Positions 4,047 through 56,472 of a DNA stretch of 64,000 nucleotides are shown here, piece by piece. The first letter of the stretch is position 1. Each line of letters opens with the position of its first letter. This stretch comes from a phage. The DNA lies in assembly GCA_019566135.1 (NCBI GenBank), contig GCA_019566135.1_3044.1, one strand, 5' to 3'. The translations under genes and the position numbers were made by a program. The notes under the pieces were generated by a model that had not been told where the DNA came from, made no database searches, and was given only the letters and a program-made list of their open reading frames with translations.

Positions 4047-4363
4047 AAGTCCTCAACTTGAAAATCGTCTTTAAACAATCGGTTAACTATATGAGCTATT
4101 ATATCACCATGACACGGCTTTGGTTTACATGTGCATCCTAGCCTCATTCCACGTAAAGGCTCTAAATGTGCTTTAGTTATTTCTCCGGATTTAATTCGAC
4201 GTATAAAATCTTTTTTGAATAATTCAATGGCAGCCTCCCGGCTGCCAGCATCTTTACCGACGTAATTTCCCCAAAATGTACCACGGTGAATATTAACATC
4301 AAAGTCGGATTTATATTTATTCACTACCCGGCATAGACGGCCCGCGCGGTTGTAGGTGTTCAT
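4037..4363 (-). CDS. Hypothetical protein, DUF4326-like (nrdA.1 position)
   Basis: 108 aa; WGNY...[12 protein letters not shown] pattern resembles the DUF4326 family; overlaps neighbours. Confidence 0.55.
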
Positions 4364-4592
4364 ATTGTTCTTCCGTTAAAACAGTAATATCGTAGTAACA
4401 GTCAGAAGAAGTTTTAACTGTGGAAATTTTATTATCAAAATACTCACGAGTCATTTTATGAGTATAGTATTTTTTACCATAAATGGTAATAGGCTGTTCT
4501 GGTCCTGGAACTTCTAACTCGCTTGGGTTAGGAAGTGTAAAAAGAACAACGCCAGAAGTATCTTTAAATCGTAAAATCATACATCCTCGCAA
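4317..4592 (-). CDS. Hypothetical protein (nrdA.2 position)
   Basis: 91-aa ORF between td and nrdA; start uncertain. Confidence 0.45.
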
Positions 4593-4600
4593 TAATAAAA

Positions 4601-5461
4601 TTACACCGCCATTTTTCCTTTAATTGGCAGATGAGATACATAGTTGTTAAGAACAAAATTATGAGGCTTTGCAAATTGACTCAACCAAAATACCTGCGAT
4701 TCTGTGTCCCATTCATCAAATTCATCTGGAAATTTTAATTGTAATTCGCATAAATCCATAGGTTCACGACGTAAAATTTCTTTACATTGTTCTACGTGAT
4801 TCATATAGATATGAGTATTACCACCAGAAAATATCAAATCTCCAGGAATAAGATTACACATTTTAGCTACAATATGAACTAACGTAGCATATGATGCAAT
4901 ATTAAATGGAAGACCGAGGAAAACATCTACCGAACGTTGATACCACTGCAAATCTAAATAGCCATTACGCACATTAAACTGATAGAACATATGACAAGGC
5001 GGTAATGCCATATATTTAAGTTCAGCTGGATTCCACGCAGAAACAATTTGACGCCTATCATTTGGCAGTTTTTTAATACGATCAATAACTTTTATAATTT
5101 GATCTACACCGCCAAAATCACGCCACTGTTTTCCATAAATTGGACCAAGTTCACCGCTATGGTATCCTAAATCTTTTGCTTGATTTTCGTAATTTTCATC
5201 CCAGACTGTTTTGCCTTGAATTAATGAATCATGTTGAATTAATCGCAAATCATTGACATTTGTGCTTCCTGATAAAAACCATATTAGCTCAGCAATGCAT
5301 GCATTCCAGGCGAGCTTCTTAGTTGTTACTGCAGGAAAACCTTTGGTTAAATCCCAACGCAATTTAGTACCGAACAAAGCAATTGTTCCTGTGCCCGTTC
5401 GGTCATCGGTTTCATAGCCATTTTCAAAAATGTCTTTAATTAAATCTTGGTATTGTTTCAT
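4601..5461 (-). CDS. td: Thymidylate synthase, uninterrupted (no group I intron, no I-TevI)
   Basis: 286 aa; [17 protein letters not shown]... matches T4 Td as remembered; one contiguous frame. Confidence 0.95.
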
Positions 5462-5506: not shown

Positions 5507-6699
<1,193 letters not shown>

Positions 6700-6703
<4 letters not shown>

Positions 6704-7059
6704 ATTACCTCCCACTGAAAGGGGCCAGAAGCAAATACGCTATCTTTAATCATTTTAACTAAAGTTACCATTCCTCTGTTAACTGCTTGTGCAATTTCAT
6801 CAAAAACTTCATCACTATCACCATAAAGATCGCTAAAAAGTTCTAACACATTCTTCTGAACTTTTAATTTACAGCCAACAAATTCGCCTACAGTAAATTC
6901 GTTTCCGCCAACTCCAGCGTAAAACGTAATTACACCAGTTAATGGTCTTTCACTAGAACATAGGTCGTGTGATAAATTAATATAAGACGTCCCGGGTACA
7001 GTTTTAAGTTGGCAACGAATACTTACTCGAGCAATTCCAGCTACATGAATGTCAGACAT
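6700..7059 (-). CDS. Hypothetical protein (119 aa)
   Basis: ORF, translationally coupled to neighbour. Confidence 0.5.
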
Positions 7060-7632: not shown

Positions 7633-8019
7633 TTAGGCCTTAAAAGTTTTTCGCAAAAGTTCAATGATTTCATCTACATTGTTTTCGTCAACAATGCAGT
7701 GAATTTTTGTTACGCCAGAAACTATACCTTCATTAGCGGATTGAGGCTTTTCTAAAGTTACCTCAGTAAAGTATTTGAATTCTTCAGGGTAAATCTCAAA
7801 ATACGTCTCAAGTGGGCCACCCGCCATGTATTCAGTACCATCTTCCATAGTTACACGTACCACACATTCACCAGCACAATCATCACTTTCCATTTCATCT
7901 ACAACAAAACTAGGTCCGTGCTTCTCTATTAAATTTAGCATCATTACATTGCAACGGCACTCGTTAGCAAAGTCATTTTTAAATAAAGGGTTAATGATAT
8001 AAGTTTTTCCAACTTCCAC
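7633..8019 (-). CDS. Hypothetical protein (128 aa, GTG start)
   Basis: GTG at 8019 preceded by GAGGA; protein-like composition. Confidence 0.45.
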   Translation of the reverse strand: MEVGKTYIINPLFKNDFANECRCNVMMLNLIEKHGPSFVVDEMESDDCAGECVVRVTMEDGTEYMAGGPLETYFEIYPEEFKYFTEVTLEKPQSANEGIVSGVTKIHCIVDENNVDEIIELLRKTFKA

Positions 8020-34282: not shown

Positions 34283-36103
34283 CTACTGGCTCATCCATTC
34301 TTTACGAAGGTCAGCATTATCTCCCATGAGCATTTCAAAAAGCTCTTTCCAGTTCTCAGGAAGTTTAACAACATCATATACTGGATTTTGAATCATTTCA
34401 CGATATTCAGATTTTTCCAAAGAGCCAAGTCCTTTAATATAACGGATGCTATGTTTAGGTAGAGCATCTTTGGCACTCTCATATTCAGCGACTGTATAAA
34501 ACCATTCTTGTTTTTTACCGACCTGAGCGATGATTACAGGAGTTTTGACAAAGCGAATTCGTCCTTGCTCAAACAATTCTGGCCAATTACTAAAAAATCC
34601 GAGCAGAGAAGGATAAATGCTTCCTAGACCATCATGGTCAGCATCAGTCATAATAGCAATATTGCGATAATTCATGTTTTCAGCTTTTTCACCAAGAACT
34701 AATCCAGTGATTGCGCAAATATCAAATAGTTCTTTGTTTTTAAGCATATCTGCATAAGACATACCCCAACTGTTGAGAACTTTACCACGCAATGGATAAC
34801 CACCATGAAGTTCTTTATCACGAACATCAATAAGATATCCGATAGCAGAATCACCCTCAGTCAAGAAAAGAGTAGTATCAGCATCTTTACCGCACAGATT
34901 AGCTTTAATATGTTTATGAACCTTTGCCTTAGAAGCCTTTTTAGCTGCTTTAGTTTCAGCTGCTTTTTCTGCTGCCAATTTACGAGCTAGTGCAGCTTCA
35001 ATAATTGGCATTAAAATTGCTTCATTATTTAAAATAGCGCGTGAAATCTTTTTAGCGTCAAGTTGAATATGACTACGGATTTCACCAAATGGAGAAGTCA
35101 AACGCTCTTTAGTTTGAGAATCAAATCGCATGTTTTTCATATCACGAACAAACATAACGATAGTCAAACATTCTTTAACGCGTGCTTTAGTTACATCAAT
35201 TTTGAACTTACGTTTGATTTGTGGAATAAGGTCTTCACAAATATCATCCATAACACAGTCAATGTGATGGCCACCATTCTTAGTATGAATGTTATTGACG
35301 TATGTTAATTGACGAAATCCATCCGGTGAACGACCAACCGCAATAGAACAATTTTCTTGTTCTTGAACAATAGCATGTTCATCATACTGTAGTGCATATT
35401 TCTTAAAATTGCCCTGAACCTTTTTACCATTAAAGGTAAATTGAATATCAGGATAAACAACAGCAAGTGTCTGGAGACGATCTAGTGTAATGTCAAGATA
35501 AACTTGGGACAGCTCATTAGTTTCAAATGACATAAAATCTGGAATGAAAGTAACACGAGTTCCTTTCCATTTTCCAGGAATAGTTTCCCAGGATTTATTT
35601 TCCATGCCATTTGAACAACGAACTACAATATTATTTTGACCATCGCCAGTTTCACCGACAAACATCACAGAAAAAATGTTAGTTAAACTAGAACCAACAC
35701 CATTCATACCACCGGTGACACGTTCTTTATCATCACCAAAGTTACCACCCGCTTTTGGAATAGTCCAAGCAGCAACTGGACCAGGAATTTCTTCACCGGT
35801 AGGTGTTTTAACCATCGCTTGTGGAATACCACGACCGTTATCTTCAACTGTTACTTGATTGTTTTTAATAGTAACATTAATTTTATTTGCGAATTTAAAC
35901 TTAGTACGAATACCTTCATCTACTGAGTTATCGATAATTTCATCAATAAGCTTAACAAGACCAGGTACATACTGAACACTTTCCCATTTACCAAACAGAA
36001 AGCGCTCATGCATTTCATTAGCAGAAGAGCCAATGTACATGCCACTACGCTTTTTGATATGTTCAATATCGCTCAGAATTTTAATTTCATTCTTAATCAT
36101 CAC
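34283..36103 (-). CDS. 39: DNA topoisomerase II large subunit, unsplit (gene 39 and gene 60 portions in one ORF)
   Basis: 606 aa contiguous GyrB-like ATPase plus TOPRIM; no split, no mobA, no bypass gap. Confidence 0.9.
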   Translation of the reverse strand: MMIKNEIKILSDIEHIKKRSGMYIGSSANEMHERFLFGKWESVQYVPGLVKLIDEIIDNSVDEGIRTKFKFANKINVTIKNNQVTVEDNGRGIPQAMVKTPTGEEIPGPVAAWTIPKAGGNFGDDKERVTGGMNGVGSSLTNIFSVMFVGETGDGQNNIVVRCSNGMENKSWETIPGKWKGTRVTFIPDFMSFETNELSQVYLDITLDRLQTLAVVYPDIQFTFNGKKVQGNFKKYALQYDEHAIVQEQENCSIAVGRSPDGFRQLTYVNNIHTKNGGHHIDCVMDDICEDLIPQIKRKFKIDVTKARVKECLTIVMFVRDMKNMRFDSQTKERLTSPFGEIRSHIQLDAKKISRAILNNEAILMPIIEAALARKLAAEKAAETKAAKKASKAKVHKHIKANLCGKDADTTLFLTEGDSAIGYLIDVRDKELHGGYPLRGKVLNSWGMSYADMLKNKELFDICAITGLVLGEKAENMNYRNIAIMTDADHDGLGSIYPSLLGFFSNWPELFEQGRIRFVKTPVIIAQVGKKQEWFYTVAEYESAKDALPKHSIRYIKGLGSLEKSEYREMIQNPVYDVVKLPENWKELFEMLMGDNADLRKEWMSQ

Positions 36104-45413: not shown

Positions 45414-45884
45414 CTAGCGATAAAAACCAAAGTGACGATTAGCTTCAATGATCTTTCTTTCTTCTTCGGACATTCTCCAGCGTAGTCCAACATCAAAATG
45501 AGCCCAGACCATCCTAACAAATGCATTTATATCTTTAATATCTTCAATAATGAATGTTTTACTTTTAGAAGGTTGACTCGCTAATTTAACTTTATCGTCT
45601 TCAAACATGTCAAAAAGACCATATTCATGAGCTCTTTTATAGCCTTTAATAGTTAAAGCTTCAGAAGAAGAAAATGGTGAATCTGTATTCTGCAAAATAT
45701 CTTCAGTATGCTTTATAATTAGAATAACATTTTCTGGATATTTTCTTTCTTTTATATCTTTAATTAAAATATCCGGATTTTCTGCTAAAGGAATAATTAA
45801 CGAGCATTTTTTATCAAGTGTATTTACTGATTTACCTTCTTTAGACATAAATTCTATTGAATATAATTTTGCTACTTCAATCAT
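45414..45884 (-). CDS. Hypothetical protein (156 aa)
   Basis: ORF. Confidence 0.5.
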   Translation of the reverse strand: MIEVAKLYSIEFMSKEGKSVNTLDKKCSLIIPLAENPDILIKDIKERKYPENVILIIKHTEDILQNTDSPFSSSEALTIKGYKRAHEYGLFDMFEDDKVKLASQPSKSKTFIIEDIKDINAFVRMVWAHFDVGLRWRMSEEERKIIEANRHFGFYR

Positions 45885-46041: not shown

Positions 46042-46241
46042 GATTTATCACCATAGATGTCTCTCATCAATTTAAGCGCTGAGCGTTCTAATTTCTTTTC
46101 TTTCTCAGCACTAATCATTGATTTCATCCATTCTTCTGACTCGTTCTGCATTTCTTTATTTGCCTGTTCAACCCAACCATCATCAATATACATTGAGTTT
46201 GGTCTATTGAACCATTCAAGCATTTTCTTCAGAACTTTCAT
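46038..46241 (-). CDS. Hypothetical protein (67 aa)
   Basis: ORF. Confidence 0.45.
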
Positions 46242-46701
46242 TTGTTTTACCTAAAACGATAGTATGGACAGCGTCAAATTCATGAATTTTTAGCAAATTA
46301 GGATTTAAATTATTCCATAAAGAGGTAATAAAATATGATAGCGCACTTTCGTCCGTAATTATAAATTTATTTCCTTTATCTATTTTCCAATCATATATTG
46401 AATCGTATGAATAGAAGGATAACGGTTTATTATTATAGTATGCTTCAGCAACATCAATATAGTTAGATTTAGTAAATGCTTGAATTGCCATAAATGGAGA
46501 ATTTTGTACAGTTTCAATAATTCCGATCTTTTTAAGTTTTATTTCAACATCTTCTGGAACTGGCATTGAAATAAAATCTTCTACTAGATACATGTCATTG
46601 TCATATCTTTTATCAATCATTACTGCTACTGTAATTGGAACATCCTTGACAAACGCCATACTAATACTATTGATAGACATTTCAAACAAAATCGCTTCCA
46701 T
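46216..46701 (-). CDS. Hypothetical protein (161 aa from ATG 46701)
   Basis: GAGGA SD before ATG 46701. Confidence 0.5.
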
Positions 46702-46709
46702 AATTTTCC

Positions 46710-47051
46710 TCAATCACAAGATGTAGATGAACAACTAGAATCACAAGAACTTCCACATGAATCGCCCGTCCATACATGAACAGGAACATTGGTGTCATAT
46801 GAATCAGAACTAGACTGTGTATTCTGTGCATTAGATGATGTAGTAGGTACTGACCAGCGCCAAGGATTTTTATAATATTCTTGGGCTTCTTCATAAGTCA
46901 TAGTAACTGCTTCTACTGTTCCATCTCCCATATAAACATACTCAACTACAGTTAAAGGAAGGTAGTCATTTGAAATAGGAACTACACCTTCTCCCGGAGT
47001 TGTAGAGAAAAAATCTGTAAAGAAATTTTTAAACCAATTAAATATAAACAT
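46710..47051 (-). CDS. Hypothetical protein with hydrophobic N-terminus and Cys/Ser-rich C-terminal tail (113 aa)
   Basis: C-terminus ...[20 protein letters not shown]; N-terminus [15 protein letters not shown]. Confidence 0.5.
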
Positions 47052-47838: not shown

Positions 47839-48029
47839 TTTGAATGCTCTATAATTAATTTTAAAGCTTCTTCACTGACAAAAATTTCGTCAGGACCTTC
47901 TATAACTTCAACCATACGAAGTTGATTAGTTAAGAGCTCACATACGAGCTCCTTGTTATAATCTTTAAATAGCTGGTCAATACGTTTCTTATGGGCTTTC
48001 TTAAGCTGACGCTTATTTAAACGAGCCAT
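47835..48029 (-). CDS. Hypothetical protein (64 aa; soc.2 position)
   Basis: ORF. Confidence 0.5.
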   Translation of the reverse strand: MARLNKRQLKKAHKKRIDQLFKDYNKELVCELLTNQLRMVEVIEGPDEIFVSEEALKLIIEHSK

Positions 48030-48547
48030 TAATAACCTCGGTCTTGACGAGCGAAGTTTTCAGCATTTTTCAGGTAATAAAGTTTAAAGATTTCTTCAGC
48101 CGACATTCCAAGAGCAATAAATTTATTCATGAAAAAGTGAAATTGGTCAATCAGTTCAAATTTAATTTCAAGCTGATCTTCAGGAGATAAGTCTTGAATT
48201 TTCTTGGATTGCATTTCAGAATAACGTTTCTTCCAAGGTTTCCATACAGCAGAAGCTTCTTTTTCACCATTACTCATACCACCAAGAGAAGTATATAGCT
48301 CGCGAGTTTCGTCTGCGATATAATCGTCTTGGTTTCGCAGCCAAGCAAGAACTTCTCCTGCAGTTTCAAGTGAATCAGGATGACGATTTGTTTCTGGTTT
48401 ATCATTAGCCAAACGAATCTGTAAATGCCGCTGCATGTCAAGCATAACCTGCAATGGGTCAATACTGTGCATAATATACTCAGCATATGCACGATTTGCT
48501 TTATCAACACCTTCGATCAAATGAGCACATTCATTAAAGTGAGCCAT
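48029..48547 (-). CDS. 56: dCTPase/dUTPase gp56 (MazG-like), 172 aa from ATG 48547
   Basis: MAHFNECAHLIEGVDKANRAYAEY...; AAAGGA SD; track's longer ORF is an upstream read-through. Confidence 0.85.
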   Translation of the reverse strand: MAHFNECAHLIEGVDKANRAYAEYIMHSIDPLQVMLDMQRHLQIRLANDKPETNRHPDSLETAGEVLAWLRNQDDYIADETRELYTSLGGMSNGEKEASAVWKPWKKRYSEMQSKKIQDLSPEDQLEIKFELIDQFHFFMNKFIALGMSAEEIFKLYYLKNAENFARQDRGY

Positions 48548-48618
48548 TATTTTTCCTTTCAATTCATGGGTTAGTAGATTAATTATACAATAAATATATA
48601 AAGCAATAAGGAGGACAT

Positions 48619-48819
48619 ATGGTACAAAAATTAATGGCACTTGTTAATGCCATAAAAGGTAATAAAAAACGTATAGCTTTTACTATTTCTGCTATGGTAG
48701 GAATTTTACTCTGGAACTTTATTTTATCACCAATTGCAATTGCGCATGGTGTTAATATTCCAGTAGTTACTCTTGATACATTTGTAGATTTAGCATTTGC
48801 TTTAGTTGGGTTGATTTAA
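48619..48819 (+). CDS. Small membrane protein on the opposite strand (66 aa)
   Basis: Strong SD AAGGAGG 5 nt before ATG 48619; two hydrophobic segments; converges on gene 61, overlapping its stop by 4 nt. Confidence 0.55.
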   Translation: MVQKLMALVNAIKGNKKRIAFTISAMVGILLWNFILSPIAIAHGVNIPVVTLDTFVDLAFALVGLI

Positions 48820-53295: not shown

Positions 53296-53658
53296 TTAAA
53301 AGAATTTAAACTTTTTCTTTGATCTTTTATTAAATGCATCTTGTAGTTGCATTGTAATACATTTTTCTACATGAGGAGCTAACTCAGCTTTTCTTTCTTG
53401 GTCAAGAACAGCAAAGTCCATTACGACTTTTCCATCAACCCAATCTAATTTTGTCACATACACAATGTGTGTAGAACCATCTTCTAGTTTAATGACAATC
53501 TCCTGGATAACATTTTCCATGGCAGATTTAATTATCTTAAGAGATTCATTAAAAAGACGTTCTTTTCTTTCTTCTTCCCCCTCCGAAGAGGGGGATTCAT
53601 CGATAATTTCTAGATCTAAATCTAAATCATCTTTATTCATTAAATTCTTCCATATCAC
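53296..53658 (-). CDS. 40: gp40 (head assembly accessory protein)
   Basis: 120 aa; position between uvsX and 41. Confidence 0.75.
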   Translation of the reverse strand: MIWKNLMNKDDLDLDLEIIDESPSSEGEEERKERLFNESLKIIKSAMENVIQEIVIKLEDGSTHIVYVTKLDWVDGKVVMDFAVLDQERKAELAPHVEKCITMQLQDAFNKRSKKKFKFF

Positions 53659-54814
53659 TTAGCTGATCTAGGTCAGTTTCTAAATCAGCAGCTGATTTAC
53701 TTTTACTTTCTGGAGATTTAAATTTTTCAACTTTTGAGTTAATTAATTCATCAACTTCCGCTTCAACAATTTCATTACTATCAATAGCACCTAACTGATA
53801 AGCACGCTTAATAGCATCACGGAATGGTTGATGCTTAAATAAAGGACCCCAGAATGTAGTGCAGTTGGTATCTTTTGCACGCCAAGATTTTTCTTCGCGA
53901 ATCATCTCGCCGGTTTCTTCATCAAGAAATTCACGAGCATACCAACCATTTTTAGGTTTTACCACGAATCCTAATTCTAGAGCCATATCTAACAATCCAG
54001 AATAAGGATCGATACCGCCGTCAAATTTAACATCAATAAAGAATTTACTTTTTTCTTTAACGGTACGAGATTTTTCTACATTTAGAACAAATTGATACCC
54101 TTGAAGATCAGAACCATCTTTAATCTGACGTTTACCGATAATGAATACGGTATCAGCCGAATACATTACGCCTGTACCACCTGTCATCACGGTTTTACTA
54201 AACATTTCAATTGTTTCAATTGTATGGTTAACCGCAACGCATGGAATATTTTTAATGCTAAAATAAGGAGTAACAATACGGAATAATGACTTCAGTGATT
54301 TAGCACGAGTCATATCTGCCACAGATTTTTCATTCAAGGCATCTTCCGTTTCTTTCTTAGAAGCCATATTACCAATTGAGTCGATGAATACAATAACCTT
54401 TTCACCGCGCTCAATAGCTTCAAGCTGGTTCACCATATCAATTTTCAGCTGTTCAACTGACTGGATTGGCGTATGAATTACTCGTTCCGGGTCAACTCCC
54501 ATGGATCGCAAATAAGCTGGAGTAATACCAAATTCGCTATCATAGAATAGACAAACCGCGTCAGGATATTTGTTCAAATACGCCGCAACCATAGTCAAAG
54601 ACATATTTGATTTAAAGTGTTTAGAAGGACCTGCAAAAATGGTTAAACCAGACTGCATACCACCATCAATCGCACCAGAAATAGCGATATTAAGCATTGG
54701 GATTTTTGTACGGATTACATCCTTTTCATTAAAGAATTTAGATGTAGTCAGTTCAGCAGTCATTTTAGAAGTGGAAGCTTTAATCAAACGGGATTTTAAA
54801 TCTGCAATAGACAT
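53633..54814 (-). CDS. uvsX: Recombinase UvsX (RecA-like)
   Basis: 393 aa; Walker A GPSKHFKS; close match to T4 UvsX as remembered. Confidence 0.93.
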   Translation of the reverse strand: MSIADLKSRLIKASTSKMTAELTTSKFFNEKDVIRTKIPMLNIAISGAIDGGMQSGLTIFAGPSKHFKSNMSLTMVAAYLNKYPDAVCLFYDSEFGITPAYLRSMGVDPERVIHTPIQSVEQLKIDMVNQLEAIERGEKVIVFIDSIGNMASKKETEDALNEKSVADMTRAKSLKSLFRIVTPYFSIKNIPCVAVNHTIETIEMFSKTVMTGGTGVMYSADTVFIIGKRQIKDGSDLQGYQFVLNVEKSRTVKEKSKFFIDVKFDGGIDPYSGLLDMALELGFVVKPKNGWYAREFLDEETGEMIREEKSWRAKDTNCTTFWGPLFKHQPFRDAIKRAYQLGAIDSNEIVEAEVDELINSKVEKFKSPESKSKSAADLETDLDQLSDMEEFNE

Positions 54815-54892: not shown

Positions 54893-55741
54893 TTAATCAA
54901 CTGCTATTGGATGAATAGCATTAAACTTATGAAATGCTTCTGATTTTTCTTTACGCGAAACACACATGCGAAGAACCTTTAGTGGTTCATCTTCTTCACC
55001 CAACGATTTTCGTTTTTCAATATTCGATGTTTTCCAACGAGCTTGCTCTGGAAACTCTCTATTGATTTGCTCAAGCGCTCTATTATGTTTAGAATTACTA
55101 CGAATTGAACTACACCCGCCAGGAGCTTGTGCTTTTCCAGATACAACTAGATATTTGAACAAGGCCAAATGCGGATAACCTTGATTAATTAAATTGAGAA
55201 ATGCATACATATCTTCGCATAAATCAATTTTTCCATACCCAATTTGTTCTGTCGTAAGTTTTCCAAGGTCATACCAAGTATTCGTGAATCCATATGAATT
55301 TTCACGATAATTACCCCAAGATGAAGTAATTTTAAAAATTGGTAAACGAGCATGACCATGATAATACCCACAATCCATGGCATCTTCAACGTATTGAATC
55401 AATTCATAGAACTGTTCACGAGTTAATTGATTAATTTTATCTACACAGCGACGATCATCTTTCTTTCGCATTGAACTCATACGAATAGTAGTATCATCAT
55501 CAATCATCCAGATTCGTTGACCTGCATACATATCAGTAATTGCTTTACGAGTACCAGCAATTCCATTAACATCATCAGGAATAGTTATAATTTTGGCTTT
55601 AGACCCGTAAGCGTCATAATAAGCTTTTTCTTCGTGTTCACGTACTACAATATGAGGTTCATAATCAGTCGGAAACATATCAAGGGCAGAAACTGCCCCT
55701 ACGCGTTGATAGCTTGGAATTACGAATTGAATCATTTCCAC
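54893..55741 (-). CDS. HMC-DNA glucosyltransferase at the beta-gt locus (282 aa, DxD motif); T2/T6-type second-glucose transferase suspected
   Basis: MIDDDTT DxD motif; sits between uvsX and 42 where T4 has the 351-aa beta-gt. Confidence 0.5.
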   Translation of the reverse strand: MEMIQFVIPSYQRVGAVSALDMFPTDYEPHIVVREHEEKAYYDAYGSKAKIITIPDDVNGIAGTRKAITDMYAGQRIWMIDDDTTIRMSSMRKKDDRRCVDKINQLTREQFYELIQYVEDAMDCGYYHGHARLPIFKITSSWGNYRENSYGFTNTWYDLGKLTTEQIGYGKIDLCEDMYAFLNLINQGYPHLALFKYLVVSGKAQAPGGCSSIRSNSKHNRALEQINREFPEQARWKTSNIEKRKSLGEEDEPLKVLRMCVSRKEKSEAFHKFNAIHPIAVD

Positions 55742-56472
55742 TCACCATTATAATCTTTTTTCACAATATGAGTTTCGCCAGTATTCCACCAATGATCAAC
55801 CAAGTAAAAATGACGAGAATATACATGAAGACTTCCAACATTCCATATAATAGAACCTGCTTTATACTGACGAGTTGAATCACCTGCATTCAAATCAGAT
55901 ACTAATTTATCTAGTACGTATTTTTGCCATGCATAATCATTACGGAATCCGAAGACAACGTCATTTGAACGCATGCTCACTACTGCATTGACTTTCTTAT
56001 CACGAATCAGGTACTGTACTGTATTCGTACACATGAAATCTGACATACCATCTTTATTGTAGTCAAACTGCATGGATGGACGAGTATAAATCATGATACC
56101 GCGTCGAGAATCAGGATTTTGACCAAGTTCAGCTAAACACATATCATACTGGGCATAGTTATCTTCTGACCAGATGGCCCAACCATAATTCGAGTTAATT
56201 TCGCCTTTAGAAGATGCTACCTGTTGCCAAATCTTCGGTGTTTCACCTGGAATATCTTTAACAAACAAACTTTTAGATTTATACCATTCAAGTTCACGCT
56301 GAATGTATTCATCATTAAGAGCGCCAAAAATAAATGGTTCATCTGCTACAAATGATGCGCCAATAATTTCAATAGTTTTAACGCCAGTTTTATCAACTAC
56401 GAAATCTTTTTCCTTTAATGCAAGCCCCAAATGAAGACGGATTTCTTCAACTGTCATAGAGTCACTAATCAT
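55732..56472 (-). CDS. 42: dCMP hydroxymethylase gp42
   Basis: 246 aa (same as T4 gp42); thymidylate-synthase-like fold motifs. Confidence 0.93.
   Translation of the reverse strand: MISDSMTVEEIRLHLGLALKEKDFVVDKTGVKTIEIIGASFVADEPFIFGALNDEYIQRELEWYKSKSLFVKDIPGETPKIWQQVASSKGEINSNYGWAIWSEDNYAQYDMCLAELGQNPDSRRGIMIYTRPSMQFDYNKDGMSDFMCTNTVQYLIRDKKVNAVVSMRSNDVVFGFRNDYAWQKYVLDKLVSDLNAGDSTRQYKAGSIIWNVGSLHVYSRHFYLVDHWWNTGETHIVKKDYNGEWK

Follow-up and report, generated by a model that had tools for sequence, protein, structure and literature searches.

Which glucosyltransferase is encoded between uvsX and gene 42 of this phage, and what would it do to the phage DNA? In T4 this interval holds segA and beta-gt, whereas T2 and T6 carry there instead the gene of a TET-associated glycosyltransferase (TAGT). 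We analysed a window of 64,000 nucleotides, the whole stretch of DNA available to us. Its source is a Tequatrovirus, a T4-like phage; the last 24 kb of the window are 96-97.5% identical in nucleotide sequence to many Tequatroviruses, AV122 being the best match (97.5%). The genes on the minus strand are ordered 41, 40, uvsX, the TAGT gene, gene 42, a 49-aa ORF, imm, imm.1 and gene 43. The TAGT gene thus occupies the position of T4 beta-gt in the uvsX/gene 42 interval, without segA, for which tblastn gave no significant match in the 64-kb window. The synteny of TAGT with T4 beta-gt has been stated for the Durham phages (PMC13390438). The features of the locus are as follows.

53633..54814, minus strand: uvsX recombinase, the downstream flank (Pfam T4_UVSX_C, E 4.7e-39, and RecA; synteny with T2, T4 and T6)

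54893..55735, minus strand: coding sequence of TAGT, also called ba-gt or g-gt, 280 aa plus TAA (ORF, PHROG 842, PF20691, identity to T2)

55493..55501, minus strand: GAT GAT GAT, encoding D79-D80-D81, the predicted DxD motif for binding of metal and UDP-sugar (alignment and model)

55736..55741, minus strand: GTG GAA, the two extra codons of the mechanical 282-aa ORF (sequence; orthologues are annotated from the ATG)

55732..56472, minus strand: gene 42, dCMP hydroxymethylase, 246 aa (97% identical to T4 gp42; Pfam thymidylate synthase family)

48029..48547, minus strand: gene 56, dCTPase/dUTPase, 172 aa (PHROG 173, NTP pyrophosphohydrolase, E 5.9e-44; 70% identical to T4 gp56)

The original prediction placed a 282-aa glycosyltransferase at the beta-gt locus. 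The minus-strand ORF of 282 codons, which opens with GTG at 55741 and closes with TAA at 54893-54895, is real and so is the locus, but the length is not that of the protein: the choice of GTG is an artefact, as it was taken for being the earliest codon able to serve as a start. Translation almost certainly begins at the ATG at 55735-55733, which gives a protein of 280 aa, because this ATG overlaps the gene 42 stop codon, TGA at 55734-55732, in the sequence ATGA, follows the purine-rich GGTGAG at 55746-55741, and matches the starts of the annotated orthologues. All orthologues that we inspected, from T2, from AV122 and from the ten Durham phages, begin at this same ATG and span 843 nt (280 aa). 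Positions 55736..55741 are probably part of the ribosome-binding region and non-coding for the TAGT protein. Gene 42 lies directly upstream with its stop codon overlapping the TAGT start, and the simplest account of TAGT expression is that its translation is coupled to that of gene 42. A scan for promoters and terminators around the TAGT gene found sites no more numerous than in shuffled sequence.

The gene at 54893..55735 is no chance ORF, because its product matches PHROG 842, 'beta-glucosyl-HMC-alpha-glucosyltransferase' (E 1.7e-89), and has homologues in 690 phage records by tblastn. It also matches Pfam PF20691, the TAGT family, with 38.8 bits over profile positions 2-205 of 205, against a curated cut-off of 27.5 bits. 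The T2 enzyme is identical to it at 275 of 280 residues (98%), and the T6 enzyme (MH550421) shows seven differences, one of which is a stop codon of MH550421. This bears out the proposal that this is a second-glucose transferase of the T2/T6 kind. Identity is at least 95% in 472 of the 690 records, which are Tequatroviruses of Escherichia, Shigella and Yersinia, and 60-80% in 203 others, from relatives infecting Klebsiella, Enterobacter and Salmonella; 46 phage records reach at least 99%, and the 90%-identity cluster of the protein has 485 member sequences. Among the matches listed, the TAGT homologue adjoins gene 42. These comparisons leave us highly confident that the gene is an ordinary, intact beta-glucosyl-HMC-alpha-glucosyltransferase of the T2/T6 type. 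The finding is already known: sequenced T4-like phages with this gene at this position number in the hundreds.

The enzyme had also been described as shorter than, and unlike, the 351-aa T4 beta-gt, and we found the same: BLASTP detected no similarity between the two proteins (E 3.3), and PF09198, the Pfam family of T4 beta-gt, had no match in the window protein. The best tblastn match to T4 beta-gt in the 64-kb window (E 0.18; 50 aa at 7642-7785) was not significant and lies far from the TAGT locus. T4 beta-gt shares with TAGT its genomic position, and it too takes UDP-glucose as donor and makes a beta linkage on phage hydroxymethylcytosine (hmC) DNA. However, it is a 351-aa GT-B enzyme of family PF09198 with bare hmC as acceptor, whereas TAGT would be a GT-A enzyme acting on alpha-glucosyl-hmC.

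The MIDDDTT motif, from which a GT-A type DxD enzyme had been predicted, lies at residues 77-83 in the 280-aa numbering (79-85 of the 282-aa ORF). D79-D80-D81 is invariant across a ten-sequence family alignment that reaches down to 32% identity. In the structure model, which is of moderate confidence and falls below pLDDT 50 at residues 196-211 and at the C-terminus, DDD is found where the predicted strand beta-4 (residues 74-79) ends, and an N-terminal I-P-S-Y-Q-R loop follows strand beta-1. We take this loop to resemble the GT2 nucleotide-binding motif. Fold searches with the model returned only GT-A/GT2 inverting enzymes and related nucleotidyltransferases, and no GT-B protein. With the bacterial GT2-family inverting enzymes TarS, TarP, RmlT, AvpGT and BcsA, TAGT has in common the fold and a DxD motif after strand beta-4. 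A sequence search of the PDB returned no solved structure of a TAGT family member, the sole match (E 0.76) being spurious. Alignment and model thus support a GT-A fold with a conserved DxD for the TAGT protein, in agreement with the GT-A fold already modelled for the T6 enzyme (PMC13216743).

The window contains both gene 42 and gene 56; the hmC pathway is therefore present, and the prediction of hydroxymethylcytosine DNA, which was drawn from these two genes, stands. Gene 56 is read from an internal ATG at 48547 of a mechanical ORF of 203 aa, the alignment with T4 gp56 starting at residue 32. The third component, alpha-gt, had no significant tblastn match in the 64-kb window. AV122 has it 4-5 kb past the position corresponding to the 3' end of the window, and it is also carried by T6, Geo, Solly and Some. 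Judged from these relatives, alpha-gt is very likely present in the source phage, 4-5 kb past the 3' end of the window. Because alpha-gt is outside the window, we infer the substrate of TAGT from synteny.

The enzymology of glucosylation in T2 and T6 was reportedly worked out by Kornberg, Josse, Lehman and colleagues in the 1960s, and the glucosyltransferase genes of these phages are said to have been cloned by Winkler and Rueger in 1993. The T2 enzyme resembles that of the window in its 280 aa, its uvsX/42 locus, its ATGA overlap and its DDD, and the T6 enzyme in its locus and GT-A fold; the window enzyme differs in lacking R11H and P251S of T2 and the lesions of two T6 records. Both phages lack beta-gt and add a second, beta-linked glucose to alpha-glucosyl-hmC, which yields gentiobiosyl-hmC; the DNA of T2 contains about 70% alpha-glucosyl, 5% gentiobiosyl and 25% bare hmC, and that of T6 about 3%, 72% and 25%, respectively (bioRxiv 10.64898/2026.02.25.707755). 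A T6 mutant with ba-gt deleted is left with alpha-glucosyl-hmC only, and its sensitivity to the Brig1 glycosylase rises (PMC11078745). The ten Durham Tequatroviruses encode alpha-gt and TAGT and no beta-gt, and HPLC/MS of their DNA detected hmC, alpha-glucosyl-hmC and gentiobiosyl-hmC and no beta-glucosyl-hmC (PMC13390438). In Geo, EL and BGP the ratio of hmC to alpha-glucosyl to gentiobiosyl forms is about 1:2:2, and Solly, TB37, EH2, CP, Some, QOTSP and NR1 have about one third hmC and two thirds gentiobiosyl-hmC (PMC13390438). The T6 deletion that loses gentiobiosyl-hmC, the GT-A fold and the LC-MS of ten close relatives are thus already published.

In the source phage, gp42 and gp56 would replace dC with 5-hydroxymethyl-dC. 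After replication, alpha-gt would place an alpha-linked glucose on most of the hmC, and TAGT, depending on its DxD, would add a second glucose derived from UDP-glucose onto the first by a beta-1,6 linkage to give gentiobiosyl-hmC. This second transfer would invert the configuration, like those of the related GT2 enzymes. In the absence of a T4-type beta-gt, part of the hmC would stay bare, and the expected DNA would be a mixture of hmC, alpha-glucosyl-hmC and gentiobiosyl-hmC. A gentiobiosyl and partly unglucosylated DNA had been predicted for this phage, and the prediction is consistent with the chemistry of T2 and T6 and with the LC-MS of the ten close relatives. Our analysis itself covered the identity, locus and intactness of the gene, the fold, the conservation of the motif, and the presence of genes 42 and 56; that the donor would be UDP-glucose and the linkage beta-1,6 we infer from the T2 and T6 enzymes and from T6 genetics.

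We considered three other readings of the gene. The exact coincidence with the T4 beta-gt position might mean that the enzyme is a non-homologous replacement of beta-gt, a primary glucosyltransferase that acts on bare hmC and gives mono-beta-glucosyl-hmC. GT2-like enzymes are inverting, so that a beta product would be expected in either case, and distant homologues of TAGT are encoded by phages that have neither alpha-gt nor beta-gt (PMC13216743); some members of the family must therefore use other acceptors. However, the window enzyme is only 3-8 of 280 residues away from enzymes whose products have been analysed. In T2 and T6 about 25% of the hmC is left bare and beta-glucosyl-hmC is lacking, the ten relatives with TAGT show no beta-glucosyl-hmC by HPLC/MS, and T6 without ba-gt loses the second glucose only. 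A primary transferase at this locus is thus very improbable. Slightly less so, and still unlikely, is a hypomorphic or inactive TAGT, with DNA that consists essentially of alpha-glucosyl-hmC and hmC, as in T2 or with even less gentiobiose. The ORF is intact, with Q10, R11, DDD and all invariant columns retained. Impaired alleles do exist in laboratory phages (R11H of T2, with about 5% gentiobiosyl-hmC, and two lesions in T6), and three substitutions are private to the window allele; but these, K46, K92 and I101, are conservative, lie at variable columns and are seen in other homologues, and the 46 records of at least 99% identity together with the 485-member cluster argue for a widespread functional allele.

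The transfer of another sugar, for example arabinose or GlcNAc, to give a different hypermodification is the least credible of the three, and we give it almost no weight. The enzyme is 97-99% identical to those of phages with gentiobiose in their DNA. Relatives in Mosigvirus do use arabinose, and donor specificity is unreadable from a model of moderate confidence, but the arabinosyl pathway is that of another genus, and its sugar sits on 5-hydroxycytosine, not on hmC. The second-glucose transferase of the T2/T6 type is therefore the reading that we retain.

The presence of TAGT as such a transferase assigns the phage to the T2/T6 type of modification, with hmC, alpha-glucosyl-hmC and gentiobiosyl-hmC, rather than to the T4 type, with alpha- and beta-glucosyl-hmC. 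This assignment bears on host range: neither the Brig1 glycosylase nor the BapA deglucosylase is effective against gentiobiosyl-hmC, the leftover bare hmC is a target of Brig3, and enzymes of the GmrSD/BrxU type cut all forms of hmC. It is useful for annotation and for the choice of phages, and adds nothing beyond what is published for hundreds of relatives.

The share of singly and doubly glucosylated hmC differs among these phages, and we compared the TAGT allele of the window with those of T2, T6, AV122 and the ten measured Durham phages. The window enzyme differs from the T2, T6 and Durham enzymes at 3-8 of 280 residues. Its private substitutions, R46K, R92K and V101I, are conservative and lie at variable columns. 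The enzymes of Geo, EL and BGP share V50, I89, K95, R97, S202 and H203, and the haplotype of this intermediate group relative to the consensus is I50V/M89I/R95K/C97R/A202S/Q203H. The seven high-gentiobiosyl Durham phages have the consensus residues at positions 50, 89, 95, 97, 202 and 203, as does the window. Their TAGTs are 3-5 aa from that of the window, a count that includes K46, K92 and I101 of the window, and their interval between genes 56 and 61 lacks dam, as in the window. By haplotype, the window allele would be of the high-gentiobiosyl type. Our best guess by resemblance, which rests on a weak association, is that about two thirds of the hmC in the source phage would be gentiobiosyl-hmC and about one third bare.

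There are two alleles of alpha-gt, which differ by about 33 aa and separate Geo from Solly and Some. Attribution of the phenotype to TAGT is confounded because the alpha-gt alleles also separate the Durham groups. T6, with 72% gentiobiosyl-hmC, has the same alpha-gt type (Geo/T4-type) as Geo, which has an intermediate level. An attempt to read the ratio of gentiobiosyl to alpha-glucosyl forms off the TAGT allele, with the ten phages that have published HPLC/MS data plus T2 and T6, thus gave a weak association, as the alpha-gt alleles covary.

The T2 enzyme carries R11H, at a residue that is invariant in the family alignment and lies in the I-P-S-Y-Q-R loop just after the first strand, as well as P251S. 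All eight records of T2/SV76 (PV648363 and seven others; 6007-6849 of the extracted PV648363 locus) are identical across the TAGT gene, and teqskov, the nearest non-T2 relative, has R11. R11H is a candidate that could explain why T2 has about 5% gentiobiosyl-hmC against 40-72% in its relatives; we found no statement in the literature searched that R11H causes the low level in T2. Two independent genome records of T6 each contain a different lesion. In MH550421, Q10 is an amber codon (CAG to TAG) and the CDS is annotated from M20 (4138-4980 of the extracted locus); in AP018814/NC_054907, one GAT of (GAT)3 is lost in frame, which turns DDD into DD (61-900 of the extracted locus). Both lesions are odd in a phage with 72% gentiobiosyl-hmC, and therefore suggest that laboratory stocks of T6 may lose TAGT function. 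A preprint on 'contingency loci' deals with homopolymers in alpha-gt only and does not cover the (GAT)3 deletion of T6. The window TAGT is intact, with none of the lesions of T2 or T6 and with Q10, R11, DDD and all invariant columns present.

It is conceivable, though we would sooner doubt it, that natural allelic variation in TAGT helps to set the share of doubly versus singly glucosylated hmC in Tequatrovirus genomes. If this were true, the ratio of mono- to di-glucosylated hmC and the sensitivity to defences of the Brig1, BapA and Brig3 types would be predictable from sequence.

Several features of the window outside the TAGT locus were also recorded. The segment around gene 56 (48029-48640) is a locally divergent mosaic, gene 56 being 70% identical to T4 as against about 97% in neighbours such as gene 42. 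T4 has the homing endonuclease gene segF adjoining gene 56, and segF has reportedly been linked to marker exclusion at this locus. A dam methyltransferase gene is absent from the interval between genes 56 and 61 (48548-48815), and tblastn found no Dam homologue anywhere in the window. In this interval the window is unlike T4, Geo, EL and BGP, which have dam, and resembles Solly/NR1, with only a small ORF on the opposite strand. The PHROG of Mrh, which modulates transcription under heat shock, is matched by two ORFs, at 45414-45884 (156 aa) and 46216-46713 (165 aa), which look like paralogues separated by a few hundred bases. A single ORF of 606 aa occupies 34283-36103, where T4 splits a topoisomerase subunit between genes 39 and 60. 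A td-like ORF at 4601-5461 (286 aa) is apparently uninterrupted. Judged by ORF lengths only, the 606-aa ORF and the uninterrupted td would fit a T2/T6-like rather than a T4-like genome.
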